Assembly: GCA_963728205.1 (NCBI GenBank)
Contig: CAVSIV010000006.1
Location: forward strand, 256,001-320,000
DNA from: an uncultured Chloroflexia bacterium
Lineage (GTDB): Bacteria; Chloroflexota; Dehalococcoidia; UBA2979
Direction of reading: 5' to 3'
Length of the DNA: 64,000 nucleotides
In this document: piece by piece, positions 22,820 through 54,618 of the stretch
Layout: every line of letters starts with the position of its first letter
How positions within the stretch are numbered: position 1 is the stretch's first letter
Position numbers and translations under genes: made by a program
Notes under the pieces: model-generated
The model's input: only the letters and a program-made list of their open reading frames with translations
What the model was told of the DNA's origin: nothing
Databases searched by the model: none

Positions 22820-22830
22820 CGGCGCCGTCG

Positions 22831-22908
22831 GCGAGCGGCAGCCGTGAGCGCTGCCGTGCGGCGAGTGGCGACAACAGCCCCACGGCAGCGCCGACGGCTG
22901 CCGCTCGC
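22831..22908. repeat. REP-like family B inverted pair
   Basis: GCGAGCGGCAGCCGTGAGCGCTGCCGTG (22831-22858) and its near reverse complement (22881-22908). Confidence 0.75.
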
Positions 22909-22985
22909 TGAGAGGGGCGCCTCCACAGGAGGCTGAAGCGTGCTGCGCGGCGCCGAGCGGTCGCGGCCTGGAGGCCGCGTTGATA

Positions 22986-23009
22986 TCGGCGGCGTATCTG
23001 CCGCCGCTT
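22986..23009 (-). repeat. REP-like family A single copy
   Basis: TCGGCGGCGTATCTGCCGCCGCTT. Confidence 0.75.
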
Positions 23010-23068
23010 GCGGCGGACAATCACCCAACGCGCGTTATCATCCGGCCCTCGAGACAGGGGGACGTGCG

Positions 23069-31859: not shown

Positions 31860-32003
31860 ATGATGGACACGCTTCCGCGCCCGCTCGTCCGCCGTGCCGA
31901 GGTGGCGCGCAGCCAGTGGCGCCCCTGGATCACCGCCTTTCTCGCCTCGCTGATGCTGGTCGGCGGCGGCTGGATCGCGTCGGTCTGGCCCCGGCCGTTC
32001 TAG
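31860..32003 (+). CDS. Small single-TM protein (47 aa)
   Basis: GGGAGGA RBS; MMDTLPRP...WITAFLASLMLVGGGWIASVW. Confidence 0.6.
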   Translation: MMDTLPRPLVRRAEVARSQWRPWITAFLASLMLVGGGWIASVWPRPF

Positions 32004-32097
32004 CTCGAGCCGCCACCGGGCTCGGGCAGCGGGCTGCATCATTTGGGCCGGGCGACCGATGGTTGAAGCGAGCGGGACGTGCCGAAGAGGGCCGTGG

Positions 32098-32487
32098 ATG
32101 ACTCGAGACCGGCGAGCCGTGCAGCGTGTGAACGTCGCCATCCGGCCGTGGCGCGTCGACCTGCTCGGTGAGCCCGCCGCGCCCGGTTCGCTCGGCGGCG
32201 TCGTGGAGATCCTCGACCTCAGCAGCACGGGCGCGCGCCTGAGCATCGCGGGCGACGTGCACGTCGACGACCGCCTCGCGCTCGACTTCCAGTACCGCAA
32301 TCGCCGCTTCACGGTCCCGGGGCGCGTCGTGTGGGCGCGCGCCGAGGAGGACGAGCCCGAGGAGCGCGAGGTCGGCCTCGTCTTCGAGGATGTGCCCGCG
32401 TTGACGCAGGCACGGCTCGAGAGCGTGCTCGGGCGGCAGGCCGCGCTCAACCGGTCGCTGCCCGGTGCGGGTGCCGCCGCGTCCTGA
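32098..32487 (+). CDS. Stand-alone PilZ-domain protein
   Basis: RRAVQR (RxxxR) and DLSSTG (DxSxxG); GRVVW; VGLVF. Confidence 0.88.
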   Translation: MTRDRRAVQRVNVAIRPWRVDLLGEPAAPGSLGGVVEILDLSSTGARLSIAGDVHVDDRLALDFQYRNRRFTVPGRVVWARAEEDEPEEREVGLVFEDVPALTQARLESVLGRQAALNRSLPGAGAAAS

Positions 32488-32577
32488 GCGTCGTCGCCGC
32501 GCGCCTCAGGACGCCGCGCTCCGACCGCATCGCGGCGTCCTGAGGCGTCGCCAATCGCCGCGCCGGGGGCCCGCCCC

Positions 32578-32686
32578 GGAACCGCCCTGCAACCCCCACG
32601 TAGCCCCACCGCAGGGGACGCGAAGTGCGCCGGTAGCGTGCTCGCAATCCGCCGTTCACGGTGCCGACATGCCCGCTGCCTAGCCT
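32578..32686 (+). promoter_or_regulatory. GlnR-like 11-bp periodic box array plus -10 (promoter 1)
   Basis: Pentamers GGAAC, GCAAC, GTAGC, GCAGG, GAAGT, GTAGC, GCAAT, TTCAC, GACAT at exact 11-nt spacing from 32578; TAGCCT at 32681. Confidence 0.7.
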
Positions 32687-32721
32687 CGATGCTCAGCCCC
32701 GCAGAGCGAAGGAGAGGCACC

Positions 32722-34425
32722 ATGCCCGCACCCGAGAAGCCGCGGATCGCCGTGTTCTCCGGCCCAACCGCGACCATCCAGAACAGCCCGCCGCTGGTCA
32801 CGAGCAACAAGGCGCGCGCAGCGCACGCCCTGCCGCTCCTCGCCGATCCGGACGGCGCACCGTCGCGCTTCGACACGCTGCGCGCGCAGCGCCTCGCCGC
32901 GCCGGTCACCGTCTACGTCGACGCGCTCAGCGCCCACCCGCTCGAGCGCGACGCCCCCGAGCTCTGCGCCGCTGCGGACGGCTACCTCGACGCCGCCGGC
33001 GCGTTTCACGAGGAGCCGACGAGCCCGGCCGACCGCGCGGTGTACCGGGTGACGCTCGACCCGACAGACGGCCTGTACCTGCTCCCCTACATGGCGCGCC
33101 AGGCGAACGGCGAGGCGTGGGACGACGCGACCGCGTTCCCCTTCGCGCCCCAGGAGCAGTCGCGCCAGACGTTCTATCCCGACGCCCACCGCATCTACGA
33201 GGAGATCGACCGCTTCGGCCTGGACGGCGCGGGACGCAACTGCATGCTGTCGTCGGTCGCCACGTTCGACTTCTACCGGCCGGCGCCTTCGGGCGGCTAC
33301 AAGCACGGCCTGTCCGCGGCCGCGCGCACCGACACCGGCGAGGGCGACCTCGCGCCGGAGGCGCTCGGCGAGGACTTTTTCATCTACTACCCGCGACACC
33401 TTCGCGCGGAACCGCACATGGCGTCGCTGGCGCGCGCGACCAACGTGGTGCAGCGCGCCATGGCCACCGGCAGGTACGCCGGCGCGCAGTGGCTCGAAGG
33501 CAGCCCGACCACCGAGGAGTCGATGTACTGGCTGAACCTGCTGGTCGACACGCAGGTGCCGCTGGTCGGCCACTCGGCGCAGCGACCGCACCAGACGCTG
33601 AGCGCCGACGGCGATCGCAACATCGCCGACGGCGTGAAGTACATCCTCTCGGGCATCTGGCGAAACGGCGGCGCGGCCGACGTCGTGGGCGGCGTGATGA
33701 TCGTCGACGAGGTCGTGTTCGCGGCGCGCGAGGTGACGAAGACCGACGCGCGTCCCGGCAACTACCAGGCCACCGGTGGCCACGGCGGCATCGTCGCGCT
33801 GATGGGCGGCCACGGCGACCCGCAACTCACCTATCTCCCGACGAAGCGCCACACCGCCTCGTCCGAGGTGAACCTCGCGCGCATCCCGGCGGCGGTGCCC
33901 GGCGTGCGGGCGACCGACGCCGGGATCCAGTCGTTTGCCGTCGCGGTGAAGGACGCCGACGGCGGGCTCGTGCCGGACGCGATGCCGAAAGTGACGATCG
34001 CGAAGTACGCGCGCTACCAGTCGGACGGCTCGGACGCGAACCCCGAGCGCGAGGTCGAGATCATGTCGCGGATCGCGAGCAACCTGGCCGAGTCGCCGCT
34101 GGCCGGGTTCGTCGGCGAGGGCGCGTCGCCGTACGGCTCGATGAACCGCGGCACGGACAACGCGCTGCAGCGGGCGGCGTTCAGCGGGATGCCGGTCGTG
34201 CGCTGCGGCCGCGGGTCGACGGGCGGCCTCGCGAGCAAGACGGACGGCGTGACGATCGCGGGGAGCAACCTGACGTCGACGAAGGCGCGCATGCTGCTGA
34301 TGGCCTCGCTGCTGCGCTTCGGCGCGCTGCCGCCGGCGCGCGACCCGTCGGCGCCGACGCCGGACGAGGTCGCGGCCACGATTGCGAAGGTCGCGGAGTA
34401 CCAGGCCGTGTTCGATACGCACTAA
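32722..34425 (+). CDS. Atypical asparaginase-fold protein
   Basis: IAVFSGPTATI, EGSPTTEESMYWL, SAQRP..ADGDRNI, AREVTKTD, NLTSTKARMLL. Confidence 0.8.
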   Translation: MPAPEKPRIAVFSGPTATIQNSPPLVTSNKARAAHALPLLADPDGAPSRFDTLRAQRLAAPVTVYVDALSAHPLERDAPELCAAADGYLDAAGAFHEEPTSPADRAVYRVTLDPTDGLYLLPYMARQANGEAWDDATAFPFAPQEQSRQTFYPDAHRIYEEIDRFGLDGAGRNCMLSSVATFDFYRPAPSGGYKHGLSAAARTDTGEGDLAPEALGEDFFIYYPRHLRAEPHMASLARATNVVQRAMATGRYAGAQWLEGSPTTEESMYWLNLLVDTQVPLVGHSAQRPHQTLSADGDRNIADGVKYILSGIWRNGGAADVVGGVMIVDEVVFAAREVTKTDARPGNYQATGGHGGIVALMGGHGDPQLTYLPTKRHTASSEVNLARIPAAVPGVRATDAGIQSFAVAVKDADGGLVPDAMPKVTIAKYARYQSDGSDANPEREVEIMSRIASNLAESPLAGFVGEGASPYGSMNRGTDNALQRAAFSGMPVVRCGRGSTGGLASKTDGVTIAGSNLTSTKARMLLMASLLRFGALPPARDPSAPTPDEVAATIAKVAEYQAVFDTH

Positions 34426-34450
34426 CGGACCACGACCGGTGTGGGTGGAG

Positions 34451-34474
34451 GGAGGGGGCCGCGGGGCCCCCTCC
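34451..34474. terminator. Hairpin between convergent genes
   Basis: GGAGGGGGCC-GCGG-GGCCCCCTCC. Confidence 0.6.
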
Positions 34475-34476
34475 TG

Positions 34477-34610
34477 GCGAGCGGCAGGCGTAGGTCCTGC
34501 CGTGCGGCCGGGTTGCCGAGCAGGACGCCGCGGCCGCGCGCAGCTCGCGCGGCGATCCGATGCGGGGCTCGCCGGCGCCGCACACGGCAGGACTGACGCC
34601 TGCCGCTCGC
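34477..34610. repeat. REP-like family B inverted pair
   Basis: GCGAGCGGCAGGCGTAGGTCCTGCCGTG (34477-34504) and inverted copy (34583-34610). Confidence 0.75.
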
Positions 34611-34713
34611 GGGGGCCGCGCGCGCGACCGGACCGGCCCGCCGGCACGCGCACGGACCGGCCGGGGAGTGACCGCCCGGCCGGTCCGTGCGCGTGGTGCC
34701 GGGACGCCGCGCG

Positions 34714-36129
34714 CTACGACGCGGCGGCGACCGCCTCCGCGATCGGCGGCACCTCGAGGTGCCACGCCGTCGCCTGCTGGTACGCGTACCCCGCGCGCAG
34801 CACCGTCGCCTCCGCGAACGGGGCGCCGACGATCTGCGCCGAGAGCGGCAGGCCATCGGCCGAGAAGCCCGTTGGCACCGCCAGCGCGGGGTAGCCGAGC
34901 AGGTTGAACGGGCCGGTGTAGCTCGGCTGCAGCAGCCGCTTCGCCATGTCCATGTCGGACGCGACCTGCGCCGGCTGCGTATTCGTCGGCGTGACCAGCA
35001 CGTCGACGCCGGCCATCACCTTCGCCGCCTCGCGCGCGAACCACGAGCGGAAGCGCTGCGCCTGCACGTAGTCGGCGGCGGTGTAGAAGGCGCCGCGGCC
35101 GATGATCATGCGCGTGCCTGACCCGTAGTGCGTCCACTTCGGGCCGGCCATGTCGACGCGGTGGTAGGCGAACGCCTCCGACACCATCGTGATGGTGTTC
35201 GCGTCCTTGGCCAGCGCCGCGTGCGGCAGGTTCACCGCGACGATCTCGGCGCCGCCGGCGCGCAGCACGTCGATCACCTGCTCGGCGCCCGCCTTCGTCT
35301 CCGGCTCGAGCGCAGGGTGGTCGAAGAAGTACTCGGTCGGCACGCCGACGCGCAGGCCGGCGACGCCGCCCTCGATGCCGGCGAGGTAGTCGTCGACCGG
35401 CGCGGTGCCGGCGGAGGGGTCGCGCGGGTCATGGCCGGCCATCGCCTGCAGGATCGCGGCGCAGTCCCACGCGGAGCGCGCCATCGGGCCGATGGAGTCG
35501 AGCGAGTAGCCGAGCGGCACGCACCCCCACTTCGGCACGCGGCCGTAGGTGACCTTCAGGCCGGTGTGGCCGCAGGCGGCGGCCGGGAAGCGGACCGAAC
35601 CGCCGGTGTCGGTGCCGAGGCCGCCGAGCACCATGCCGGTCGCCACCGCGATGCCGGTGCCGGACGACGAGCCGCCCGGCGTGCGCTCGAGGTTCCACGG
35701 GTTGCGCGGAATCGGGAAGCCCTTCGTGGGGTCCGGCGGGCCGAGCGCGAACTCCGAGAGCACGAGCTTGCCCATCAGGATCGCGCCGGTGGCGCGGATG
35801 CGCTCCGAGGCGACGGAGTCGTAGCCGCGGCCCCAGGCGCGGTCGAGCACCAGGCTGTTCGCGGTGCTGTCGACGTCCTTCGTCGCGAGGACGTCCTTCA
35901 GCGCGAAGGGGATGCCCTGCAGCGGGCCGCGGTCGACGCCGGCCGCGAGGTCGGCGTCGGCCTGCGCGGCGGACGCCAGCGCGGACTCGTCGGTGACGGT
36001 GATGAACGCGCCGACCCGATCGTTGAGGCGCAGGATGCGCTCGAGCGACGTGCGGGTGAGCTCGGCGCTGGTGACGGTTCCGGCGCGCAGAGCGGCGGCG
36101 GCCTCGCGGATCGTGAGCGGGGATGACAT
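34714..36129 (-). CDS. Amidase signature family enzyme (AtzE-like context)
   Basis: PFALKDV, GGSSSG, GTDTGGSVRFPA. Confidence 0.93.
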   Translation of the reverse strand: MSSPLTIREAAAALRAGTVTSAELTRTSLERILRLNDRVGAFITVTDESALASAAQADADLAAGVDRGPLQGIPFALKDVLATKDVDSTANSLVLDRAWGRGYDSVASERIRATGAILMGKLVLSEFALGPPDPTKGFPIPRNPWNLERTPGGSSSGTGIAVATGMVLGGLGTDTGGSVRFPAAACGHTGLKVTYGRVPKWGCVPLGYSLDSIGPMARSAWDCAAILQAMAGHDPRDPSAGTAPVDDYLAGIEGGVAGLRVGVPTEYFFDHPALEPETKAGAEQVIDVLRAGGAEIVAVNLPHAALAKDANTITMVSEAFAYHRVDMAGPKWTHYGSGTRMIIGRGAFYTAADYVQAQRFRSWFAREAAKVMAGVDVLVTPTNTQPAQVASDMDMAKRLLQPSYTGPFNLLGYPALAVPTGFSADGLPLSAQIVGAPFAEATVLRAGYAYQQATAWHLEVPPIAEAVAAAS

Positions 36130-36191
36130 CGGGGCTCCTTCTCGGACGCGCGGGTGGGCCCGCGGGAGTGGGACGCGCGGCGGCGCCAGCG

Positions 36192-36398
36192 CTACGCGGC
36201 CTCCGGCGGCGGGGCGACCGGCGTGAAGATCAGCGCGGGCTCCTCGTAGCGGACCTCGGGGATGTCGAGGCTGTCCGCGCCGGCGCGGAGCGTCGGGTAC
36301 ATCGTCACGAACGACTCGAACTCCTCGTCGCTGACCGGCAGGCCGGCTGACTCGACGAGGCCGCGGACCGCCGCGCGCACATCGCTCGGCTCGGGCAT
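36192..36398 (-). CDS. Small amidase partner protein (AtzG/GatC-like)
   Basis: 68 aa directly upstream of the amidase; AGLPVSDEE ... EPALIF; AAAGGAG RBS. Confidence 0.75.
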   Translation of the reverse strand: MPEPSDVRAAVRGLVESAGLPVSDEEFESFVTMYPTLRAGADSLDIPEVRYEEPALIFTPVAPPPEAA

Positions 36399-36429
36399 GG
36401 GTGGGCTCCTTTCGCGATGAACCGGGTGG

Positions 36430-37539
36430 CTAGGCGATGGGTGGGTCCAGCACGGGGAGCGGCTGGGCGGGAGCGCTCGCGCGTTCCGCGCGCCCGGAGG
36501 ACGGCGCGTAGAGGTGGCACGCGACCTGGTGGCCGGGCTCGGGCTCGGTGACCGGCGGGCGGACCGCGGCGCAGACGTCCATCGCGGCGGGGCAGCGGGT
36601 GCGGAAGCGGCAGCCCGACGGCGGGTTGAGCGGGCTCGGGAGCTCGCCCCCCAGCGGCTGCGCCGCGCGCGCGGGCTCGTCGTCGTGCAGGCGCGGGATC
36701 GAGGCGAGCAGCGCCTGGCTGTAGGGGTGCAGCGGCTTCGCGTAGAGCTGGTCGGAGTCGCACACCTCGACCGCCTGGCCGAGATACATGACGCAAACCT
36801 GGTCGCTCACGTACTCGACGACGTTGAGGTCGTGACTGATGAAGACGTAGGTGAGGTCGAGCTCCTCCTGCAGATCCTTCAACAAGTTGAGCACCTGCGC
36901 CTGCACCGACTTGTCGAGCGCCGACACCGCCTCGTCGCACACCACGAGCTTCGGCCGCAGCGCGAGCGCCCGCGCGATGTTCACGCGCTGCCGCTGGCCG
37001 CCGCTGAGCTGGTGCGGGTAGTGCGACGCGTGGTTGGGGTGCAGGCCGACCTGGCGCAGGAGCAGCTCGGTGCGCTCGCGGCGCTCCCCGGCCGGCACGC
37101 CGTGCACCCGCATCGGGAACGCGATGATCTCGCCGATCGCGGCGCGCGGGTTGAGCGACGAGTGCGGGTCCTGGAACACCATCTGCATGTTGCGGCGCAA
37201 CGTCTTGCGGACCCGGCCGAACTGCAGCGTGCGGCGATGCGTGAACGCCCGGCCGACGTCGGTCCCGTCGAAGACGACCTGTCCGGCGTCGAACGGGATC
37301 AGCCCGAGGATCAGCCGCGCGGCCGTCGACTTCCCGCAGCCGGACTCGCCGACGATGCCCATCGTCGTGCCGCGCTTCACCCGGAACGAGAGCGCGTCGA
37401 CCGCGGACACCGCGCCGCGCTCGAAGAGCCCGAGGCGGACCGGGAACTGCTTGCTGATGGCGCGCACGTCGAGCAGCGTGTCGTCCTCGCGGGACGGCGG
37501 GGTCGCGGCGCGTGCGAGCGGGGCGGTCGTCGTGGTCAT
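36430..37539 (-). CDS. Oligopeptide/dipeptide ABC ATPase (DppF/OppF-like)
   Basis: GESGCGKST, LSGGQRQR, CDEAVSALD, HPYSQALL, CRFRTRC. Confidence 0.93.
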   Translation of the reverse strand: MTTTTAPLARAATPPSREDDTLLDVRAISKQFPVRLGLFERGAVSAVDALSFRVKRGTTMGIVGESGCGKSTAARLILGLIPFDAGQVVFDGTDVGRAFTHRRTLQFGRVRKTLRRNMQMVFQDPHSSLNPRAAIGEIIAFPMRVHGVPAGERRERTELLLRQVGLHPNHASHYPHQLSGGQRQRVNIARALALRPKLVVCDEAVSALDKSVQAQVLNLLKDLQEELDLTYVFISHDLNVVEYVSDQVCVMYLGQAVEVCDSDQLYAKPLHPYSQALLASIPRLHDDEPARAAQPLGGELPSPLNPPSGCRFRTRCPAAMDVCAAVRPPVTEPEPGHQVACHLYAPSSGRAERASAPAQPLPVLDPPIA

Positions 37540-37603
37540 GGCGCGCTCCTGTCGGTGCGCCCGCCGCGTGGGTCCGCGGCGGGCGTGTGGCACGGCTCGT
37601 CGG

Positions 37604-38515
37604 CTAGTCCTTCACGTCGAGCGCGTCGCGGATCGCGTCCGCGAGCACGTTGAACGCGGTGGAGGTGACAAAGATGAAGAGGCCGGGCAGCGCGGCGACC
37701 CAGGGGTTCACGTAGATGGTCCCGCGCAGGCTGTTGAGCATGTAGCCCCACTCGGGCGCGGGCGGCTTCACGCCGAGGCCGAGGAAGGACAGGCTCGCGG
37801 CGATCACGATCGAGAGGCCGACCAGCCCGGAGGCGTAGACGAAGATCGGGCTGAAGATGTTGGCCAGGACCTGGGTGACCAGGATCTTCGGCATCGAGGC
37901 GCCGGTGAGCCGCGCCGCCTCGATGAACTCCGCGACCACGACCTTGCGCGTGGCGGCCTCTGCGACGCGGGCGATCGGCGAGATGTAGATCACGGACATC
38001 GAGATGATCACGTTGACGATCCCCGGGCCGAGCGACGCGGAGATCGCGATCGCGAGCAGCACCGCGGGGAACGCGTAAAACATGTCCATCAGGCGCATGA
38101 TCAGCGCGGCCACCCAGCCGCCGACGAACCCGGCCAGCGCGCCGAGCGCCGTCCCGATCACGGTCGCGAAGAGCACGGGCGCGAGCCCCGCGAGCAGCGA
38201 CAGCCGGCCGCCGTAGAGCAGCCGCGTGAGCATGTCGCGACCGAGCTCGTCGGTGCCGAGGACGTGGCCGGGGGCGCCGATCGGCATCAGGCGGTCGAGC
38301 GCGACGCCGACGTTCGGGTCCGCGCTCGTGAGCAGCGGCGCGCACACCGCGCCCAGCACCAGCGCCAGCAGCACGGCGAGCGCGCCCGTCCCCATCCAGT
38401 TGCGCACGAACCGCCGGCGCCCCGCCTGCAGGTACGACTCCGGCGCGGCCGGGACGTCGTCCCGCGCCCACTCGGCCGCAAGCGACGTGTCGAAGGTCGG
38501 GTCGAAGGTCGTCAT
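37604..38515 (-). CDS. ABC permease (DppC/OppC-like)
   Basis: LGTDELGRD, EFIEAARLTGAS, LSFLGLG..PPAPEWG. Confidence 0.93.
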   Translation of the reverse strand: MTTFDPTFDTSLAAEWARDDVPAAPESYLQAGRRRFVRNWMGTGALAVLLALVLGAVCAPLLTSADPNVGVALDRLMPIGAPGHVLGTDELGRDMLTRLLYGGRLSLLAGLAPVLFATVIGTALGALAGFVGGWVAALIMRLMDMFYAFPAVLLAIAISASLGPGIVNVIISMSVIYISPIARVAEAATRKVVVAEFIEAARLTGASMPKILVTQVLANIFSPIFVYASGLVGLSIVIAASLSFLGLGVKPPAPEWGYMLNSLRGTIYVNPWVAALPGLFIFVTSTAFNVLADAIRDALDVKD

Positions 38516-38545
38516 CGGGCGATCCCTTTCCCTGTCCGGCGGCCG

Positions 38546-39490
38546 CTATGCCGCACGCTTCTGGCGCGGGTCGAAGGTGACCTGGAAGACGTCGACGGCG
38601 AGGTTGAGCAGCACGAACGTCACGGCGATCACGAGCGTCGTCGCCTGCACGACGAGCAGGTCGCGCGCGGTGATCGCGTTGAAGACGAGCTGCCCGAGGC
38701 CCGGCCACGAGAAGATGGTCTCGATCAGCACCGAGCCGCCGAGCAGGTAGCCGACCTGCAGGCCGGACGTGGTGAGCACCGGCGAGATCGCGTTCTTGCC
38801 GACGTGCCAGAGCACCTGCCACTCGCGCAGGCCCTTGGCCCGCAGCATGTCGACGAACTCCGCCTGGTAGGTCTCGACGATGGCGGCGCGGGTCACGCGC
38901 GCGGTGATCGCGATCGTGATCAGCGATCCCGAGAGCACCGGCATGACCAGGTGCCGGACGTACTCGGTAACGCCGCCGCCGAGGTCGCCGATCCCGCCCG
39001 CCGGCAACACCTTGAGCTGCGCCGAGAACACGATCAGCAGCACGATCGCGACCCAGAACGACGGCACGCTCAACCCCACGATCGAGAGGAGCGTGACGCC
39101 GCGATCGATCGGCGACCCGCGATAGACCCCCGCGAGACTGCCCGCGAGGATGCCCAGCGTGAGCCCGAAGACCGCCGAGACGCCGGCGAGGACGGCCGTG
39201 TTCTTCCACGCCGACGCGATCAGGTCGGAGACGTCGCGGCGGCGGTACGGCGAGTAGCCGAAGTTGCCGTGCGCCACGTCGCCGAGCCAGATCACGTAGC
39301 GGATGGGCAGCGGGCGGTTCAGCCCGAGACTCTCCGCGAGCGCCGCCCGATCGGCGGGAGTGGCGTCCGCGGGCAGCAGCGTCGCGATCGGGTCGCCGGG
39401 CAGGATCGAGAGCAGCAGCCAGATCAGGATCGAGACCCCGAGCAGCGTCGGGATCGCCATGCCGAGCCGGCGGGCGATGATCATCAGCAT
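38546..39490 (-). CDS. ABC permease (DppB/OppB-like)
   Basis: PGDP, GNFGYS, SVPSFW, RAKGL, IETIFSWPGLG. Confidence 0.93.
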   Translation of the reverse strand: MLMIIARRLGMAIPTLLGVSILIWLLLSILPGDPIATLLPADATPADRAALAESLGLNRPLPIRYVIWLGDVAHGNFGYSPYRRRDVSDLIASAWKNTAVLAGVSAVFGLTLGILAGSLAGVYRGSPIDRGVTLLSIVGLSVPSFWVAIVLLIVFSAQLKVLPAGGIGDLGGGVTEYVRHLVMPVLSGSLITIAITARVTRAAIVETYQAEFVDMLRAKGLREWQVLWHVGKNAISPVLTTSGLQVGYLLGGSVLIETIFSWPGLGQLVFNAITARDLLVVQATTLVIAVTFVLLNLAVDVFQVTFDPRQKRAA

Positions 39491-40563
39491 CAGGCGGCAC
39501 CCTTCACGGCGTCGATGCGCAGGCAGCGGGCGTCGTGCGTCGCGCTGAGCGCGCGCAGCGCGGGCAGGCCCGCCCAGCAGGCGTCCTCGGCGAGCGCGCA
39601 GCGCGGCGCGAAGGCGCAGCCGGGCGGGAGCTTCGCGAGATTGGGCGGCGAGCCGGGGATCGCCGCGGGGCGCTCGTGCTGGCCGGGCCGCACGTTCGCC
39701 TCGAGCAAGCCGCGCGTGTACGGGTGCCGCGGCGAGCGCACGATCTCCGCGACCGTCCCGCGCTCGACGATGCGCCCCGCGTACATCACGGCGACGTCGT
39801 CGGCGACCTGCGCCGCGACGGCGAGGTCGTGCGTGACGAAGATGATCCCCATGCCGAGCGCGGCGCGGAGGTCGCGCAGCAGCTCGAGCACGCGCGCCTG
39901 CACCGTGACGTCGAGCGCGGTCGTCGGCTCGTCGGCCAGCAGCAGGCTCGGGTTCGACACGAGCGCCATCGCGATCACGACGCGCTGGCGCATGCCGCCG
40001 GAGAGCTCGAACGGGTAGGCCTTGAGCCGGCGCGCGGGCGACGGGATCTGCACCAGCTCGAGCGCCTCGAGCGCGCGCTGCGCCGCGTCGGCCTTCGAGA
40101 CCCGGTGGTGCCGGCGGATCGTCTCGACCAGCTGCTGCTCGACCGTGAACACCGGGTCGAGCGCCGTCATCGGGTCCTGGAACACCATCGAGATCCGCGA
40201 GCCGCGGACGCCCTCGCGCTCGCGCGGGCTCATCGCGATCAGGTCGCGGCCCTGCAGCACCGCGCGGCCGGAGATGCGCGCGGAGTGCGGTTGGATGCCG
40301 AGCAGCGTGCGCAGCATCGCGCTCTTGCCGGAGCCGGACTCGCCGAGGACCGCCAGCACGCGCCCGGCCGGCAGCGTGAAGGAGACGTCGTTCACGGCCG
40401 TGAGCCAGCCCTGCTTCGTGCGGAACGCGGTGCGCAGGTCGGTGACCGCGAGCAGGGGCGTCGTGCCGTCCGGCACCGTGCTCCCGTCGGCACCGCTCGC
40501 GGGACGGGGCGATCGCGTCGTGCGCTGCGTGTCCTGCAGTGCGTCGTTCAGCGCCAGCGCCAC
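39490..40563 (-). CDS. Oligopeptide/dipeptide ABC ATPase (DppD/OppD-like)
   Basis: GESGSGKS, LSGGMRQR, ADEPTTALD, HPYTRGLL. Confidence 0.93.
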   Translation of the reverse strand: MALALNDALQDTQRTTRSPRPASGADGSTVPDGTTPLLAVTDLRTAFRTKQGWLTAVNDVSFTLPAGRVLAVLGESGSGKSAMLRTLLGIQPHSARISGRAVLQGRDLIAMSPREREGVRGSRISMVFQDPMTALDPVFTVEQQLVETIRRHHRVSKADAAQRALEALELVQIPSPARRLKAYPFELSGGMRQRVVIAMALVSNPSLLLADEPTTALDVTVQARVLELLRDLRAALGMGIIFVTHDLAVAAQVADDVAVMYAGRIVERGTVAEIVRSPRHPYTRGLLEANVRPGQHERPAAIPGSPPNLAKLPPGCAFAPRCALAEDACWAGLPALRALSATHDARCLRIDAVKGAA

Positions 40564-40628
40564 GGCTGCCTCCTCACTGGTGCGCGTCGGCTCCGGCGGC
40601 CGCGCGTGGGGTTCGAGTGGTGCCGGTC

Positions 40629-40726
40629 ACGCTAGGCAGCTCGAATGTCGCCGCCGTGAATCGACCGTGAAGGTTGGATGACGCCGCGGCTGCGCCGTCG
40701 TTTCAGCGCGACTGCGTGGGCGTTGC
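40629..40726 (-). promoter_or_regulatory. GlnR-like 11-bp periodic box array plus -10 (promoter 2, dppD operon)
   Basis: Minus-strand pentamers GCAAC(40726), GCAGT, GAAAC, GCAGC, GTCAT, TTCAC, TTCAC, GACAT(40649); TAGCGT starting at 40634. Confidence 0.75.
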
Positions 40727-40740
40727 GCGGGGCCCCGCGC

Positions 40741-40838
40741 GAAACCGGGTCGAGAGCGGCCGGTAACGCGGCGGAGACGGAGCCGTCACGCGCACTTCAC
40801 GGGCGCGACACGTCGCGGCAAATCCCGCTGCCTAGTGT
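40741..40838 (+). promoter_or_regulatory. GlnR-like 11-bp periodic box array plus -10 (promoter 3, dppA)
   Basis: GAAAC, GAGAG, GTAAC, GAGAC, GTCAC, TTCAC, GACAC, GCAAA at 11-nt spacing from 40741; TAGTGT at 40833. Confidence 0.8.
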
Positions 40839-40890
40839 TCGCGACTCAACCAGACAGCCCGCACGCGCGGGCCCGGACGGAGGGTTACTG

Positions 40891-42570
40891 GTGACGAGAA
40901 CGAGGTGGCAACGTCCGCTCGCCGCGCTGGCCGGAGTGCTCGTCGCGCTCGCGCTGGTCGCGTGCGGGTCGGGCACGGCGACGACCGGCGGGAGCGCGAC
41001 CGCCGGCGCCGCGAGCGGCGCGACCGGCGCCGCGTCGTCCGCCACGCCCGACACGAGCGGGTCGGGCGGCACGCTCCGCATCGGCATGACGGCCGGCAAC
41101 ATCCCGATCCCGAACACGCCGCCGGACCAGGGCTACGAGGGTCGCCGCTTCGTCGGCAACCAGATCTACGACGCCCTCTTCAACTGGGACGACGGCCAGG
41201 GCGATCACGTCCCGACCGCGATCCCCGGCCTCGCCGAGTCGTACACGATGTCCGACGACCAGTTGACGTGGACCTTCAAGCTCCGCCCGAACGTGAAGTT
41301 CCACGACGGCACGCCGTTCAACGCCGACGCCGTCGTCTTCGAGTACCAGCGGCTGACCGACAAGAGCTTCCAGTACTACGACGCCACGAACGCTGCGCAG
41401 AACAGCAGCAGCTTCGCGTTCATCGACTCGATCGCCAAGGTCGACGACATGACGGTCGCGGTGCAGACGAAGACGGTCTACGCGTTCCTGCCCTACGACC
41501 TCGCCTTCCTCTACATCCCGAGCCCCACGGCGATCCAGAAGTACGGCAACAAGGACTACGCCGCGCACGCGACCGGCACCGGCCCGTTCGTGATGTCGAA
41601 GTACGTCGACGGGCAGGTGATGGAGTTGACGGCGAACCCCGACTACTGGGGCGGCAGGCCGAAGCTGGACAAGGTGGTGCTATACCCGATGCCCGAGCCG
41701 GCGACGCGGCTCGCCGCGCTGCAGTCGGGTGACATCGACTGGGCCGAGCTGCCGCCGCCCGACTCGGTGGAGCAGCTGAAGGCCGCGGGCGACCAGGTGT
41801 TCCTGAAGGAATACCCGCACACGATCATCTACGTGCTGAACACTCAGAACGGGCCGCTGAAGGACGTGCGCGTCCGCCAGGCGCTCGAGTACGCGGCCGA
41901 CCGCCAGGGCGCGGCGACGCTGATCAACAACGTCGGCTATCCGGCGACCCAGTACATGTACAAGGGCAACCCCTGGTACGACGACGCGTGGGCGGGCTAC
42001 ACGTACGACCCGGCGAAGGCGAAGCAGCTGCTCGCCGAGGCCGGCTACCCGAACGGCGGCATCCACCTGAAGATGGCGTACCCGACGGGCGGCTCCGGCA
42101 ACATGTTCCCGGATCCGATGAACGCGAAGCTCAAGCAGGACCTCGCGGCCGTCGGCGTCACCGTCGACCTCGTGCCGATGGAGTGGAACAACATCATCTC
42201 GGGCTACCGCGCCGGCCTGAACGACCCCGCGTGGAAGCAGTACGACATGATGTACTTCTCGGTCGCGCCGGTCTCACCGACGACGTGGAAGGGCTTCACC
42301 AGCGCCGGCCTGCCGCCCACCGGCTGCTGCAACCCCGCGGACTACCAGAACGACCAGGTCGACAAGCTGTACGCCGAGGCGATGCAGACCTTCGACGTGG
42401 CCAAGCAGAACGAGCTGTTGAAGGAGCTGCAGACGACGGCGATGAAGGACGCGCCGGTGCTGGTCACGATCCACGACCTCAACCTGCGCGTGCTGTCGCC
42501 GAAGGTGCAGGGCTTCGTGCAGCCGCAATCGTGGTTCGTGGACCTGACGCAGGTGTGGATGAAGAGGTAG
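40891..42570 (+). CDS. ABC substrate-binding lipoprotein (family 5, DppA-like)
   Basis: Lipobox LVAC; PGLAESY, FKLRPNVKFHDGTPFNA, GTGPF, YDPAKAKQLLAEAG. Confidence 0.95.
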   Translation: MTRTRWQRPLAALAGVLVALALVACGSGTATTGGSATAGAASGATGAASSATPDTSGSGGTLRIGMTAGNIPIPNTPPDQGYEGRRFVGNQIYDALFNWDDGQGDHVPTAIPGLAESYTMSDDQLTWTFKLRPNVKFHDGTPFNADAVVFEYQRLTDKSFQYYDATNAAQNSSSFAFIDSIAKVDDMTVAVQTKTVYAFLPYDLAFLYIPSPTAIQKYGNKDYAAHATGTGPFVMSKYVDGQVMELTANPDYWGGRPKLDKVVLYPMPEPATRLAALQSGDIDWAELPPPDSVEQLKAAGDQVFLKEYPHTIIYVLNTQNGPLKDVRVRQALEYAADRQGAATLINNVGYPATQYMYKGNPWYDDAWAGYTYDPAKAKQLLAEAGYPNGGIHLKMAYPTGGSGNMFPDPMNAKLKQDLAAVGVTVDLVPMEWNNIISGYRAGLNDPAWKQYDMMYFSVAPVSPTTWKGFTSAGLPPTGCCNPADYQNDQVDKLYAEAMQTFDVAKQNELLKELQTTAMKDAPVLVTIHDLNLRVLSPKVQGFVQPQSWFVDLTQVWMKR

Positions 42571-42653
42571 AGCCGGCGCGCAGCGCCGACCGCCGGCGAA
42601 CCGCCGGGATAGCCCCGGCGGCTCGCCGTCCTGACCAAGTGCCGGGCAGGTCC

Positions 42654-42740
42654 GTGGTTCGACTGCGCTCACCACGAACGGGTACGACTGGCCGCGAGTA
42701 GCTGCCGCCGGATCCGTTCGTGGCGAGCGCAGTCGACCAC
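42654..42740. repeat. Family C long inverted repeat (MITE/REP-like)
   Basis: GTGGTTCGACTGCGCTCACCACGAACGG (42654-42681) paired with CCGTTCGTGGCGAGCGCAGTCGACCAC (42714-42740). Confidence 0.75.
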
Positions 42741-42814
42741 ACGCCCCCGGGGCGAGCCGCGCGGGTAAGCCGGGCGGCTCGCCGGGGCCCGACGAGCCGC
42801 TCATACTGGGCGCG

Positions 42815-46929: not shown

Positions 46930-48132
46930 CTACCCGAACACCTCCGCGGCGGCGAGCTCGGCAATCTCGCCCTCGGTGAAGCCGTAGTCGGTCAGCGCCG
47001 CGTGCGTGTGCTCGCCGACCGCGGGCGCCACGCCCCGCGCACGGACGTCGGCGCCCTGGATGCGGAACGGCGCGGCAATCACCGTGTACGACTCGCCGCC
47101 CAGCCGCGCGACCCGCTCGAAGAAGCCCTGCTCGCGCAGGTCCGGGTCGCGCGCGACCTCGAACGGGGTCGCGATCGGCGCCCAGATACAGCCGGCGGCG
47201 TCGAGCCGCTCGTGCCAGTGCGCGAGGTCGTGCGCGCGGAACAGCTCCTCGATCTCGGGCTGGAGCGCGGGGCCGTGCTCGCGCATCGCGGCCGTCGTCG
47301 TGTAACGCGCGTCGTCCGCCCACTCGGGGCGCTCGAGCGCCGCGCACAGCCGCGACCAGTAGCGCTCGGGCAGCGGCATCGTGAGCTGCAGCCAGCGGCC
47401 GTCGCGCGTCTCGTACGAGTTGCGCGTGAGCAGCCAGTGCGTCGGGCGGTGCTGGCGCTCGAAGTCCCACTCGTCGCGGTTGAGCGCCTGCTGCATGTCG
47501 GCGGCGATCGCCCACACGCCCGTGCGCATCAGCGAGACGTCGACGAGCTGCGGCGCGCCGTCGCGGTCGCGCAGGCGCATCGCCGCGAGCACGGCGGCGA
47601 GCAGGTTGAGCGCGGCGAGGTGATCGCCCTGCCCGGGCCGCGACTGCACCGGCGGGCCGGTCCGTTCACCGAGCAGCGACATCGCGCCGGTGCGCGCGAA
47701 GAAGGCGGTGCTGTCGAAGCCGGGCCGGTCGGCGTCGACGCCGTCGGGCCCGTAGCCGGTGAGCATGCCCATCACGATGCGCGGCGCCGCGGCGGCGACC
47801 GCGTCGAACGTGAGGCCGAAGCGCTGCAGGCGGCCGGGCGTGAGGTTCGTCAGCAGCACGTCGGCCTGCGCGCACATGCGCAGGAGGACGTCGCGCGCGC
47901 CCGGGCGATCGAGGTCGAGCGTCATCGAGCGCTTGCCGCGGTTGTCGACGGCGAAGGCGTAGCTGATGGGATCGCCCTCGCGCACGGTGCGGTGGCCGCG
48001 GTAGACGTCGCCGTCGGGCGGCTCGACCTTGAGGACGTCGGCGCCCATGTCGGCCATCAGCGCCGCGCACGCCGGGGCGGCGAGGAAGTTCGCGAGCTCG
48101 ATCACGCGCACGCCTGCGAGCGGTCCGGCCAT
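46930..48132 (-). CDS. Family III (CaiB/BaiF) CoA-transferase
   Basis: GPLAGVRVIEL, GADVLKVEPP, NRGKRS, GQGDH (catalytic Asp), GEHT. Confidence 0.93.
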   Translation of the reverse strand: MAGPLAGVRVIELANFLAAPACAALMADMGADVLKVEPPDGDVYRGHRTVREGDPISYAFAVDNRGKRSMTLDLDRPGARDVLLRMCAQADVLLTNLTPGRLQRFGLTFDAVAAAAPRIVMGMLTGYGPDGVDADRPGFDSTAFFARTGAMSLLGERTGPPVQSRPGQGDHLAALNLLAAVLAAMRLRDRDGAPQLVDVSLMRTGVWAIAADMQQALNRDEWDFERQHRPTHWLLTRNSYETRDGRWLQLTMPLPERYWSRLCAALERPEWADDARYTTTAAMREHGPALQPEIEELFRAHDLAHWHERLDAAGCIWAPIATPFEVARDPDLREQGFFERVARLGGESYTVIAAPFRIQGADVRARGVAPAVGEHTHAALTDYGFTEGEIAELAAAEVFG

Positions 48133-48204
48133 GGGGCACCTCCCGGAACGAATGCGGCCGATGGTAGCGGGCCACGCCGGACGTGACGGAATCCGCAATC
48201 GCCT

Positions 48205-48550
48205 CGTCAAGCGGCGGCAGCATGCCGCCGATGCCGACGCGGCCGCCGGGCCGCGAGCCGGGTCGTCGCGAGCCGCATCGCGAGCCGCATCGCGGCCACA
48301 TCGCGAGCCGCATCGCGAGCCGCATCGCGGCCACATCGCGAGCCGCGTCGTCGCGAGCCGCATCGCGCGCCGCACCGCGCGCCGCATCGCGGCCCGCATC
48401 GCGGCCCGCATCGCGAGCCGCGTCGCGAGCCGCACCGCGAGCCGCATCGCGAGCCGGGTCGTCGCGAACCGCATCGCGAGCCGCATCACGAGCCGGGTCG
48501 TCGCGCGCCGCATCGCGGCCACATCGGCGGCATGCTGCCGCCGCCTGACG
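48205..48550. repeat. 29-bp terminal IRs (family A REP) enclosing about 22 tandem 11-15 bp units, consensus CATCGCGAGCCG
   Basis: IRs 48205-48233 / 48522-48550 with one mismatch; array 48249-48521. Confidence 0.9.
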
Positions 48551-48606
48551 GGGCGGTGGACGGCGTGACGGGCGCGGCCCCGCGGAAGCGTCCTATCATC
48601 CGCGCC

Positions 48607-49224
48607 ATGAAGGTCCGCGACGCCTGGCCCGGCAAGCTCCGCATCGACAGCACGCGCATCGCCGTGGTGGCGGACACGCACGTCGACGAGGACGGCTGGG
48701 GCTCGCCGCCCGAGCTGCTCGAGGCGCTGCGCGGCGTCGAGCTGATCCTGCACTGCGGCGACCTCGACGTGCTCGGCGTGCTCGACCACCTGGAGACCGT
48801 GGCGCCGGTGCTGGCCGTGCGCGGCTACCCCGACCCGCGCGAGGACGGCGACCGACTCGCGGAGGAGGCGCGCGTCGTCGAAGTGGACGGCGTGCGCATC
48901 GGCATGCTGCACGACCCGCGCTGGCTCGGCCCCGAGGTGCGGTGGACGCACACGCTCGAGTTCCCGCCCGGCTGGTCGGTCGACGACCTGCTCGAGCGGC
49001 GGTTCGGCCAGCGCGTCGACGTCGTCTGCTTCGGCGACACGCATGACGAGTTCATCGGCACCTACCAGGGCGTGCTGTTCGTGAACCCCGGCAGCACGAC
49101 GCGCCCGAACACGCGCCACACGCGCGACGACCTCGGCACGTTCGCGCTGCTGGACGTGAAGCGCGGCGTGGTGTCGGCAGAGATCCGGAAGCTGCGGCGG
49201 GCCACCGGCGAGCAGCGGGCATAG
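48607..49224 (+). CDS. Metallophosphoesterase (YfcE/MJ0936-like)
   Basis: ADTH, HCGD, VRGYPD, LH, FGDTH, NPGS. Confidence 0.88.
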   Translation: MKVRDAWPGKLRIDSTRIAVVADTHVDEDGWGSPPELLEALRGVELILHCGDLDVLGVLDHLETVAPVLAVRGYPDPREDGDRLAEEARVVEVDGVRIGMLHDPRWLGPEVRWTHTLEFPPGWSVDDLLERRFGQRVDVVCFGDTHDEFIGTYQGVLFVNPGSTTRPNTRHTRDDLGTFALLDVKRGVVSAEIRKLRRATGEQRA

Positions 49225-49249
49225 ACGCCCGCCGCGTCCCGGCGAGCGG

Positions 49250-50650
49250 CTACTCCCCGCCGGGGTCGCCCGCGCGCAGAGGGTTCGTGAACGCGCGACC
49301 CATGTCGCGCAGGTCGGCGCCGAGCGCGTCGCCCGCAGGGTGGCGGCCGTCGACCACCCAGCCCACGAGGTCGTTCCACGCGGAGGTGAGCTCCGGGGCG
49401 CTGAACTGGCAGTGGCCGGCGGCGCGGATCGCGCGCTGCACCAGCAGGTCGCCGCGACCGGCGGCGTCGACGGCCGCGCGGTAGGCGACCTCCTGCGCAA
49501 TCGGCACGTAGAGGTCGCCCGTGTCGTGCAGCGTCAGCAGCGGCACGGTGATGCGGCCCGTCGTCGGCGAGAGCTCCGGGTGAGCGGCCGGATCGCGCAG
49601 CGAGAGGTCGGCGGCAAGGCGCTCGATCCCGGCGTTCACCTCGGCGTCGGTGTAGCCCAGGCCGGGGTCGACGGCGTAGCGCACGGCGTCGTTCGTCGCG
49701 GCGCGGCCGGCGAGCGTCGTGCGGTCGGGGTCGAACAGCAGCAGCCCGAAGTTCGGCAGGTACTGGCGCCGGAAGCCCTCGTCGAAGAACGGGCGCGGGC
49801 CGCCGGTGAGGTTGCGGATCATGCTCTCGAACGCGAGCGCGGCGGGCGTCGTGCCGGGGTCGCCGAGCGCGGGGAACAGGCGCGTCGTGAGGGCATCGGC
49901 GACGCTCGCGCCCCCGTCGCCGATCGGCAGCGGCACGCCCGCGAAGTACGCGGCGCCGAACCACCACGACAGCAGGTAGTCGATCTCGGTCTCGTTGCCG
50001 AGCGCGCCGCAGGCCGACAGCGCCCCGGCGTAGGCGCCGGGGTAGCGCTCGAGCGACAGCGCGACGACGGCCCCGCCCATCGACTCGCCGGCGATGTAGG
50101 TGCGCGACGGCGTGCCGAAGCGCTGCGCGAAGTACGCCTTCAGCGCGAGGGTGTCGTCGGCGCCCATGCCCGGCACCCAGCCGTTGGCGCGGTAGCTGCT
50201 CGCGGCCCAGGCGTAGCCCTCGTCGATGAAGGCCTGGCGCAGGGCGGCGGGCGGGTTGGAGACGGTGAGCTGAGTGCTGAAGCCCGAGAAGCCGTGCGCC
50301 CAGAGCACGAGCTCGCCGTTCCAGTGAGCCGGGATCTCGACGCGATAGTGGGCGCCGTCCAGCCGGCCGGCATAGGACGCGGCGCCGGGCAGCGGCTCGA
50401 ACTCGGTGGGCGACGGCGATGCGGCGGTGCCGAGGTCGTCCGTGGGCGCGCCGGCGTCGGGCGAGGCGGCCGGCGTGGCGACGACGGCGATGGCGCGCGC
50501 GGCCGGCGCGGTCGCGGTGCCGCCGGCCGTCGCGGCCACGATGCTGGCGCTCGCGCGCGGAGGCGTCGCCGCCGGGGACTGCGAGGCGCCGCACGCCGCG
50601 AGCAGCAGCGCGCAGCCGAGCGCGAAGACCGCGAACGGCTTCGAGATCAA
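49250..50650 (-). CDS. Lipoprotein alpha/beta hydrolase (tannase-like fold), start uncertain
   Basis: Lipobox LAAC; WNGELVLWAHG, GESMGG, GDLYVP, GHCQF; TTG start assumed. Confidence 0.8.
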   Translation of the reverse strand: MISKPFAVFALGCALLLAACGASQSPAATPPRASASIVAATAGGTATAPAARAIAVVATPAASPDAGAPTDDLGTAASPSPTEFEPLPGAASYAGRLDGAHYRVEIPAHWNGELVLWAHGFSGFSTQLTVSNPPAALRQAFIDEGYAWAASSYRANGWVPGMGADDTLALKAYFAQRFGTPSRTYIAGESMGGAVVALSLERYPGAYAGALSACGALGNETEIDYLLSWWFGAAYFAGVPLPIGDGGASVADALTTRLFPALGDPGTTPAALAFESMIRNLTGGPRPFFDEGFRRQYLPNFGLLLFDPDRTTLAGRAATNDAVRYAVDPGLGYTDAEVNAGIERLAADLSLRDPAAHPELSPTTGRITVPLLTLHDTGDLYVPIAQEVAYRAAVDAAGRGDLLVQRAIRAAGHCQFSAPELTSAWNDLVGWVVDGRHPAGDALGADLRDMGRAFTNPLRAGDPGGE

Positions 50651-50842
50651 CGCACGCCTGCCGTGGCCATCATCCGCCTCCCCGCACCGCGGGACGACGC
50701 ATCCGACCGTCACAGGCCAGCGCGGGCACCCGCCGCGGCGAGCCCGGCGGGGCCGTCTGTGCGAGGGGTTCGGAGGGAGCGGGGGTGTGTCCCCCACTGT
50801 GCGGCGGATCATAGAGCGGCGCCGCCGTGCAGGCGAGCGGCA

Positions 50843-50929
50843 GGCACACGGCAGGCGCACCGCTGGCACACGGCAGGCGCACCGCTGGCACACGGCAGGC
50901 GCACGGCGGGCGTAACGCCTGCCGCTCCC
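50843..50929. repeat. 22-bp tandem repeat (about 2.8 copies) abutting a family B copy
   Basis: GGCACACGGCAGGCGCACCGCT repeated; family B copy at 50902-50929 (-). Confidence 0.75.
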
Positions 50930-53094: not shown

Positions 53095-53097
53095 CTC

Positions 53098-53132
53098 GGA
53101 CGCTCGGTCAATCACCCCGGACGGACGGTCAA
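53098..53132 (+). promoter_or_regulatory. AraC-type direct repeat operator
   Basis: GGACGCTCGGTCAA and GGACGGACGGTCAA at 21-nt offset between the divergent araC and ACAD genes. Confidence 0.65.
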
Positions 53133-53197
53133 GGCCGCGCCTGCGGCGTCCGCCATCCTAGCGCATGCCACGAGGGGCACCCGGGAGGGAGCGTGCG

Positions 53198-54519: not shown

Positions 54520-54618
54520 CGTCACCCCGCCACGCAGTCGCACGGCGAGCCACTTTCCAGGTGTGATCAGGTGTGGATCGACGGACCGGCGCCACCACAG
54601 AGCACTGCGAACGCCCGG

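Follow-up and report, generated by a model that had tools for sequence, protein, structure and literature searches.

A conserved GlnR-box-like operator module, most likely nitrogen-responsive, at the promoters of an asparaginase-fold, Dpp-type importer and amidase gene cluster in Chloroflexota

We analysed a 64,000-nucleotide stretch of DNA from an uncultured Chloroflexia bacterium (contig CAVSIV010000006.1 of assembly GCA_963728205.1, positions 256,001 to 320,000), hereafter the window, which contains a cluster of genes for an asparaginase-fold protein (asnL), a Dpp-type importer and an amidase. Three promoters of this cluster, namely P1 ahead of asnL, P2 ahead of dppDBCF, a small partner gene and the amidase gene, and P3 ahead of dppA, carry ladders of 5-nt units repeated every 11 nt in one register to a putative -10 hexamer, and the same module stands at orthologous promoters in eight Chloroflexota loci from metagenome-assembled genomes (MAGs; L002–L008 and L033). 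This GlnR-box-like operator is most likely nitrogen-responsive. Directly established are the sites with their conservation and placement, the genes of the cluster and the phylum of the host; from the geometry of the operator and the genes behind it we infer the family of the regulator, activation as opposed to repression, the nitrogen signal and the chemistry of the substrate. The original prediction had seen in the three promoters a shared GlnR-type regulon with identical ladders; what stands of it is one conserved GlnR-box-type cis module whose 5-nt sites recur every 11 bp, while the identity of the ladders does not.

The exact 11-nt period of the 5-nt units was confirmed at all three promoters, together with their coordinates and register. 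At P1, on the plus strand, the core operator GTAGC, GCAAT, TTCAC, GACAT occupies 32633–32670, with its last unit GACAT at 32666–32670 and the putative -10 hexamer TAGCCT at 32681–32686; it is preceded at 32578–32632 by the degenerate distal units GGAAC, GCAAC, GTAGC, GCAGG and GAAGT, of which the phased G is kept in orthologs. P2, on the minus strand, comprises the core GTCAT, TTCAC, TTCAC, GACAT at 40645–40682 (last unit GACAT, 40649–40645), the hexamer TAGCGT at 40629–40634 and the distal units GCAAC, GCAGT, GAAAC and GCAGC at 40683–40726. The plus-strand P3 has the core GTCAC, TTCAC, GACAC, GCAAA at 40785–40822 (last unit GCAAA, 40818–40822), the hexamer TAGTGT at 40833–40838 and the distal units GAAAC, GAGAG, GTAAC and GAGAC at 40741–40784. 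All units were read in an 11-nt register anchored on the presumed hexamers. In each promoter the last unit begins 15 nt ahead of a TAGnnT hexamer, and GCTGCC stands directly before that hexamer, as had been claimed.

Comparison of the three ladders showed that their unit positions agree pairwise at only 26, 18 and 25 of 40, and their spacer positions at 20, 21 and 22 of 48. Each ladder is indeed eight to nine units long, but the units are not equivalent, since a four-site core is followed upstream by degenerate extensions. The well-defined part consists of the four promoter-proximal units (at P1 the strict units number three), and the distal units retain chiefly the phased G and the A-rich positions 2–4. 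The 25 window units favour G at position 1 (21 of 25), A at position 4 (19) and C at position 5 (16). The four core sites occupy the place of the -35 element and span approximately -60 to -23, assuming that the hexamer lies at -12 to -7; a sigma-70-type promoter search of 32000–42800 found none, so that no -35 element was recognised there. A perfect 14-nt G+C palindrome, CGCGGGGCCCCGCG, lies at 40727–40740, exactly between the divergent P2 and P3 ladders. It was considered as a part of the module and rejected, as the orthologous intergenic regions do not show it.

Compared with shuffled DNA, the pattern stands far above chance. The sequence GCTGCCTAGnnT occurs three times in the window, each time at P1–P3, against 0.09 occurrences expected, and 0 of 100 shuffles reached three. 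Lag-11 self-identity amounts to 0.44, 0.43 and 0.48 for the three ladders compared with shuffle means of 0.28–0.30, values attained by 4, 7 and 0 of 2000 dinucleotide shuffles, respectively; self-identity at lag 22 equals or exceeds that at lag 11, suggestive of a 22-bp unit of two sites. A regular expression describing three units [GT]N[CA]A[CTA] with 6-nt spacers, followed by n10 and TAnnnT, matched the window at P1, P2 and P3 only, with no match in any of 30 shuffled windows. A 54-nt position weight matrix (PWM), made from 22 promoters (the regular-expression matches of the window and the Chloroflexota loci), scored P2 at 55.8, P3 at 47.9 and P1 at 39.4, compared with a maximum of 7.4 over 20 shuffled windows, and the rest of the 64-kb window held no further site scoring 12. 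A 4-unit PWM lacking the -10 hexamer was much less specific, with shuffle maxima up to 18.6.

Cruder searches placed the ladders among other repeats. A sliding lag-11 scan across the full window put the P1 region second and the P2/P3 region fifth, ranks 1 and 3 going to other repeats. A 22-nt tandem repeat at 50829–50917 (3.8 copies, 90% matches), situated inside long overlapping open reading frames (ORFs) with weak hydrolase matches, gives the highest lag-11 signal. Tandem Repeats Finder reported only 32571–32594 of the ladders because the units are too degenerate for the program. A third window match to GWCAY-n10-TASnnT, at 56404–56384 on the minus strand, was set aside as chance; no phased unit lies upstream of it, and an ORF uses its TAG as stop codon.

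To place the module in a wider setting, we used 80 loci from GTDB species genomes selected for asnL, nine of them from Chloroflexota (L001–L008 and L033; 155,504 bases). Synteny of the cluster is preserved in L003, L005, L006, L007, L008 and L033, where identity to the window amounts to 70–74% for asnL, 72–75% for the amidase, 64–74% for the 68-aa partner ORF, 66–80% for dppF, C, B and D, and 59–63% for the divergent dppA; five of these six loci have an additional amidase between asnL and the amidase. The regular expression gave 26 matches over the window and the 80 loci together. Nineteen of them fall in the nine Chloroflexota loci, compared with 0 in each of 20 shuffles, and these represent the orthologous P1, P2 and P3 together with four extra promoters.

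Gap-free alignment of the 22 promoters on the hexamer disclosed the core consensus GTCAC-n6-TTCAY-n6-GTCAC-n6-G[AC][AC]A[CTA]-n10-TA[GC]nGT, with spacer columns close to background composition. The unit at -48 to -44, which lies outside the regular-expression pattern, reads G in 21, T in 14, C in 21, A in 21 and C or T in 15 or 7 of the 22 promoters, and thus displays the unit features of a GlnR box, A at position 4 (21/22) and C/T at position 5 (22/22). Further upstream the phased G persists at -59 (19/22), -70 (18/22), -81 (19/22) and -92 (16/22). The P3 orthologs share the core GTCAC-TTCAT-GTCAC-GCAAA. The GCTGCC common to P1–P3 recurs elsewhere only at P3 of L008, the orthologs keeping T at -4 (15/22) and C at -2 (21/22), so that this part of the original prediction holds for the window promoters and not for the module at large.

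The PWM also recovered sites on which it had not been trained, namely P1 of L003 (24.7), L007 (35.5) and L008 (26.4) and the site at 9870(-) of L005 (35.0). The P1 equivalent of L001 satisfies neither the regular expression nor the PWM; inspection by eye gives GCAAC three times, TTCAT, GATAC, n10 and TACATT. At least four consecutive strict units, each with a chance of 0.037 from base composition, were present in 23 of 26 promoters (exactly four in 14, six or more in 9). The longest ladder is that of the dppA promoter P3 in L008 (19150–19320, plus strand), with twelve phased units that include six GGAAC in a row. In 26/26 promoters the last unit stands exactly 10 nt from the -10 hexamer, although the search pattern itself prescribed this register. 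From genome to genome the distance separating the cores of P2 and P3 differs (91, 92, 103, 113, 125 and 216 nt), so the two ladders look independent of each other.

The extra promoters extend the module to urease, a classic nitrogen-controlled operon. In L004 and L033 a fused ureAB gene and ureC lie behind a site that diverges from asnL, and in L006 and L007 the genes behind a site are, in order, a third amidase, ureAB and ureC. Two receiver-only response-regulator genes lie behind ureAB-ureC in L033 (5959–6815, minus strand), under the module promoter; in L005, which is without urease, the equivalent site heads a receiver-only gene (9153–9551, minus strand). These receiver-only genes have no DNA-binding domain, and their nearest window relative is the receiver of an HDOD protein at 61907–63514 (30–38% identity). 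The nitrogen signal is supported chiefly because the urease operons of sister genomes carry the ladder module, and its presence there suggests a nitrogen role for the promoters of the cluster.

Published accounts of GlnR, cited here from extracts, give its consensus as gTnAc-n6-GaAAc or GTnAC-n6-GTnAC, often as a four-site tandem, and its core as AC/T-n9-AC with an essential A (PMC10704036, PMC3087709, PMC3662644). Among the in vivo sites of S. venezuelae GlnR are the pentamers GTCAC, TTCAC, TTCAT, GACAC and GCAAC, and Streptomyces ureA is targeted by GlnR (PMC3087709). P1–P3 share with GlnR boxes, such as those of the amtB, glnA and ureA promoters in Streptomyces and Mycobacterium, the 5-nt sites, the 6-nt spacers and the direct repetition at an 11-bp period, as well as units of the GTnAC/GaAAC type, in which position 4 is A and position 5 is C/T. 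By cryo-electron microscopy, four GlnR protomers are arranged head-to-tail around a non-optimal -35 on a -64 to +13 scaffold, the two downstream protomers contacting sigma region 4 and the beta flap and the upstream ones the alpha subunit (PMC10235972). A tandem of two 22-bp boxes around a poor -35 is likewise found here, where the start position is taken from the presumed -10 hexamer. Extra upstream boxes at some promoters, the serving of divergent genes and targets that include urease and nitrogen-scavenging genes are further common traits. In contrast to GlnR systems, the host is a member of Chloroflexota and not an actinomycete, the proximal units are mostly GTCAC/TTCAY instead of GAAAC, and the ladders reach 8 units here and 12 in L008, whereas the extracts of the GlnR literature describe up to six sites.

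Gene content offers a parallel in M. smegmatis, where MSMEG_1084–1094 resembles the cluster in combining urease and an amidase with a peptide/opine/nickel importer from the superfamily to which the Dpp-type importer belongs. Under nitrogen limitation, expression in the wild type exceeded that in the glnR mutant 10–12.5-fold for the importer genes MSMEG_1084–1087, 3.3-fold for the amidase gene MSMEG_1090 and 2.6-fold for ureC, MSMEG_1094 (PMC3662644). Within the supplementary tables of the same source, these genes are absent from the direct-regulon Table S2, and neither S1 nor S2 has an asparaginase entry.

Relatives of the cluster are also found in actinobacteria. Across the 80 loci, the flanks of asnL contain an amidase-signature gene in 22, a dppA-like gene in 14 and both in 12 (six Chloroflexota and six Actinomycetota), and this partial co-occurrence indicates that the link of asnL with amidase and importer is real but partial. 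Triplets that look like ordinary GlnR boxes in the register of P1–P3 occur ahead of a dppA-like gene in Nonomuraea (L011, L022: GAAAC-GCAAT-GACAT, n10, TAGCTT) and ahead of an amidase gene in Blastococcus (L020, L021: GCAAA-GGAAC-GAAAC, n10, TACGGT), while in an Acidimicrobiales locus (L015) GTAAC-GTCAT-GTTGC-TTAAC, n10, TAGCCT precedes asnL.

Winged-helix proteins of the OmpR/PhoB family bind and activate via direct repeats of 5–7 nt placed one helical turn apart and phased to the -10 hexamer. On balance we lean, if modestly, towards P1–P3 being activator-dependent four-site operators with extensions, bound by an OmpR/PhoB-type regulator that responds to nitrogen limitation and governs a scavenging regulon; the promoters are read as four-site activator operators because the repeat geometry is of the OmpR/PhoB type, with GlnR as the closest described case. 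In the proposed mechanism, the promoters of asnL, of dppDBCF-partner-amidase and of dppA would have no usable -35 element and would depend on an activator. The core operator would be made of four 5-nt direct-repeat sites, equal to two 22-bp boxes, ending 10 nt before TAnnnT, and two to eight weaker phased sites upstream would add cooperative loading. Head-to-tail protomers of one trans-acting OmpR/PhoB-type regulator (winged-helix, Trans_reg_C) would occupy the four core sites and contact RNA polymerase around -35, like the four GlnR protomers at actinobacterial amtB. With nitrogen limitation as the signal, the PepT/Dpp-type importer would bring in an amide- or ureido-containing compound, from which the asparaginase-fold enzyme and the partnered amidase would liberate ammonia, and urease would belong to the same regulon in sister genomes.

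Several observations weigh against this proposal. As had been predicted, no local regulator of the OmpR type came to light: the 57 ORF translations scanned from the window were free of Trans_reg_C domains, and so were the 54 ORFs scanned out of the 114 that a simple, crude ORF caller gave in six Chloroflexota loci. An AraC-type gene (52105–53157) and the receiver-HDOD gene (61907–63514) of the window both lie far from the cluster. Gene content is all that speaks for the nitrogen signal, and the loci were picked for carrying asnL, so that nothing can be said from them about other genes. The 22–26 promoters represent about six or seven independent lineages, with L002/L003, L004/L033 and L006/L007 as close pairs. 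Of the four core units, three were dictated by the regular expression itself, as were the letters T, A and T in the -10 hexamer. Only 4 matches, a weak signal compared with 0–2 in 10 shuffles, came from the remaining 71 loci (1.18 Mb). Two further points, the confinement of the sites to the cluster and its adjoining urease operon and the likeness of some units to Pho-type boxes, bear directly on alternatives to the proposal.

All sites found, in the 64-kb window and in 155.5 kb of Chloroflexota loci, are located at the cluster or the adjoining urease operon, which would equally fit a pathway-specific activator of the OmpR family or the SARP type that senses the imported compound or one of its degradation products and not global nitrogen status. 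A second amidase-signature gene of the window (3692–5311, plus strand), beside a DUF3090 gene (3204–3854, minus strand), has no ladder promoter, which also agrees with such an activator. However, pathway-specific regulators usually sit beside their targets, and neither the window nor the six scanned loci yielded one; moreover, the recruitment of urease, and of the receiver-only gene in L005, to the module suggests a wider nitrogen role than one pathway, and we regard a pathway-specific activator as rather unlikely. Phosphate control calls for consideration as well. Streptomyces PhoP units are GTTCACC-like, spaced at an 11-nt period and organised as core and extension, and the pho boxes of E. 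coli end 10 bp before the -10 hexamer. The ladders resemble this layout in their 11-bp-period direct repeats replacing the -35, their core and extension units and their TTCAC-like units: TTCAC and GTCAT are Pho-like too, and the second core unit is TTCAY in 16/22 promoters, with T at -37 and -36. The sites would then be Pho boxes for a PhoB/PhoP-type phosphate regulator. The genes driven are nonetheless nitrogen-related amidohydrolases, a peptide-type importer and urease, and in this cluster-centred DNA no phosphate gene lies behind any site or turned up elsewhere in the loci examined; the units GCAAA, GAAAC and GACAC do not fit Pho boxes, and GTCAC, GCAAA and GAAAC units agree better with the GlnR sites in the extracts of PMC3087709. 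Together, these features make phosphate control highly improbable.

Repression is a further way to read the ladders, as operators that block a promoter with a -10 element only. Competition of PhoP with GlnR has been described (PMC3561978, PMC10704036), and MtrA and PhoP compete at GlnR boxes, a precedent for a repressor at actinobacterial nitrogen genes (PMC10704036). Promoters of high G+C content are often without a recognisable -35, so that its absence is no proof of activator dependence, and a repressor bound to sites at approximately -60 to -23 could occlude polymerase. The fixed 10-nt register, itself written into the search pattern, is, however, the geometry of OmpR/PhoB-type activation (PMC10235972, in extract), and a repressor needs no fixed phase; we therefore hold repression to be improbable. 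That the periodicity stems from chance, base composition or sequence-independent curvature of phased A-rich pentamers is scarcely credible. The distal units are degenerate, unit positions within the window are only slightly more alike than spacers, and two other lag-11 peaks occur in the window; yet the shuffle controls contradict chance periodicity, and specific pentamers are retained across diverged genomes while the spacers drift.

The gene order of the cluster is as originally described, with dppD-B-C-F, the 68-aa partner and the amidase gene in one direction, dppA divergent and the asparaginase-fold gene convergent. The gene asnL (32722–34425, plus strand) encodes a 567-aa protein with a Pfam Asparaginase match. 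On the minus strand follow the gene of a 471-aa GatA/AtzE-like amidase of the amidase-signature type (34714–36129; Pfam Amidase, 2e-100), the 68-aa partner ORF directly upstream of it, with its own ribosome-binding site and conserved relatives (36192–36398), and the importer genes dppF-like (36430–37593), dppC-like (37604–38515), dppB-like (38546–39490) and dppD-like (39490–40563), all four scoring below the NCBIfam equivalog cutoffs. The dppA-like gene (40891–42570, plus strand; SBP_bac_5) encodes a family 5 substrate-binding lipoprotein, with a GTG start behind GGAGGG and a lipobox-like N-terminus.

The host, proposed to be non-actinobacterial, belongs to Chloroflexota according to the closest cluster loci, which are Chloroflexota MAGs, and the relatives of IlvD agree. 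The asnL-closest loci in GTDB species genomes, L001–L008 and L033, derive from Dehalococcoidia/Chloroflexota MAGs at 71–79% identity, and the next belong to Acidimicrobiales, Nonomuraea, Blastococcus, Streptomyces and others. For the window IlvD (754–2427, minus strand), all 16 organism-named relatives among the 120 matches listed are Chloroflexi/Chloroflexota/Dehalococcoidia (79–84% identity). The window has a G+C content of 72.8% over its 64 kb, and families frequent in actinobacteria, DUF3090 and LppM, occur in it; they do not outweigh the evidence for Chloroflexota.

Judged by its matches, AsnL is a member of a large uncharacterised asparaginase-fold family: 4434 relatives with E <= 0.001 stand among the 8000 sequences scored, the best being metagenomic and 85% identical. 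The Pfam Asparaginase N domain matches residues 236–344 with 35.3 bits (cutoff 22.5), the C-terminal asparaginase domain falls short of its cutoff (28.1 vs 34.6), and residues 1–235 matched no Pfam family. The protein also falls below the curated score for type II L-asparaginases (TIGR00520, 58.9 vs a cutoff of 314.3) and compares with solved asparaginases at only 1e-14. By eye, T16 and K340 are invariant in 21 aligned sequences; we take them to be the N-terminal Thr motif and the Lys of the VTKT motif of type II asparaginases.

The amidase has GatA (4wj3, 3.7e-85) and the AtzE entry 6c62 (8.3e-53) as its best solved relatives and stays below the NCBIfam cutoffs for AtzE (NF006631, 287.5 vs 461; TIGR02715, 265.9 vs 425.75) and for GatA (283 bits vs 481). 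The 68-aa ORF is conserved in six loci, with 28 invariant positions among 7 sequences. It matched nothing in Pfam, NCBIfam or the PDB, and its 98 relatives are all named hypothetical; the five with an organism name come from Dehalococcoidia (2), Chloroflexota (1), Chloroflexi (1) and the unclassified 'bacterium SCGC AG-212-C10' (1). By its place and size it recalls AtzG, which suggests a putative partner of the amidase. As in AtzE-AtzG (1-carboxybiuret amidohydrolase and partner) and GatC-GatA, the small ORF stands immediately upstream of an amidase-signature enzyme. AtzG is a non-catalytic partner without which AtzE is insoluble, and atzG-atzE-atzH clusters, as far as the extract of the source describes them, likewise appear in a context of nitrogen-compound catabolism with ABC transporters and further amidases (PMC6219798). 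Unlike AtzG, the partner bears no detectable likeness to solved chains, and no atzH-like gene was seen in the cluster. The best NCBIfam models for the importer, all sub-cutoff, are nickel, glutathione and dipeptide systems, and nickel import may be possible given the adjoining urease in relatives.

Outside the cluster, the window includes an island at approximately 54400–62000 with a G+C content of 62–70%, compared with 73–78% in 1-kb windows at 50–54 kb. It contains a tyrosine-integrase gene (58916–59923), a weak Rep_trans match (54571–55185) and a Shedu SduA_C defence gene (57370–57963); no convincing att-type direct repeats were found around it. A weak Rfam tRNA match at the island edge (54478–54594, plus strand; 30.8 bits, 117 nt), where ARAGORN finds no tRNA, may be a tRNA remnant or integration site. 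Just upstream of the integrase gene, at 58819–58888 on the plus strand, lies a cleaner seven-unit 11-nt ladder (ATCAC, GTCAC, TTCAC, TTCAC, GTCAC, ATCAC, TTGAT), with no TAnnnT at the n10 distance and a 4-unit PWM score of 21.2, compared with a shuffle maximum of 18.6. Its units could be arm-type sites or sites of an element-encoded protein, or the ladder could act as a decoy for the regulator of P1–P3. Cyclic di-GMP (c-di-GMP) genes are plentiful (GGDEF-EAL at 9738–12419 and 18992–23020, PilZ at 32059–32487), and a c-di-GMP-I riboswitch (8006–8096, plus strand; 59.6 bits) precedes an ORF region rich in repeats. About 21 copies of a 12-nt unit form a tandem repeat at 48266–48526, in the ORF 46930–49533 (minus strand), upstream of its CoA-transferase domain.

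Chloroflexota are a large, mostly uncultured phylum, common in soils, sediments and groundwater. A full-text literature search for GlnR with Chloroflexi or Chloroflexota returned unrelated papers only, and no paper on nitrogen control in Chloroflexota was found in it. A conserved and easily scanned operator provides a handle on the extent of the regulon and the identity of the regulator in MAGs, and it could reveal whether GlnR-type control arose earlier or was exchanged more widely than has been assumed. As a tentative and more far-reaching possibility, which we hold with low confidence, Chloroflexota may own a global GlnR-type orphan regulator of the OmpR/PhoB family, a tetramer extending along the phased sites and driving an uncharacterised nitrogen-scavenging route. 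If true, the GlnR system would be common to Chloroflexota and Actinomycetota and not special to the latter, and the route would consist of a peptide-type importer, an asparaginase-fold hydrolase and an amidase with a new 68-aa partner, feeding urease. Three unstudied proteins, namely a representative of the 4,400-member asparaginase-fold family, the AtzE/GatA-like amidase and the 68-aa partner, would be tied to one co-regulated pathway, and their co-regulation would narrow the search for their substrate.

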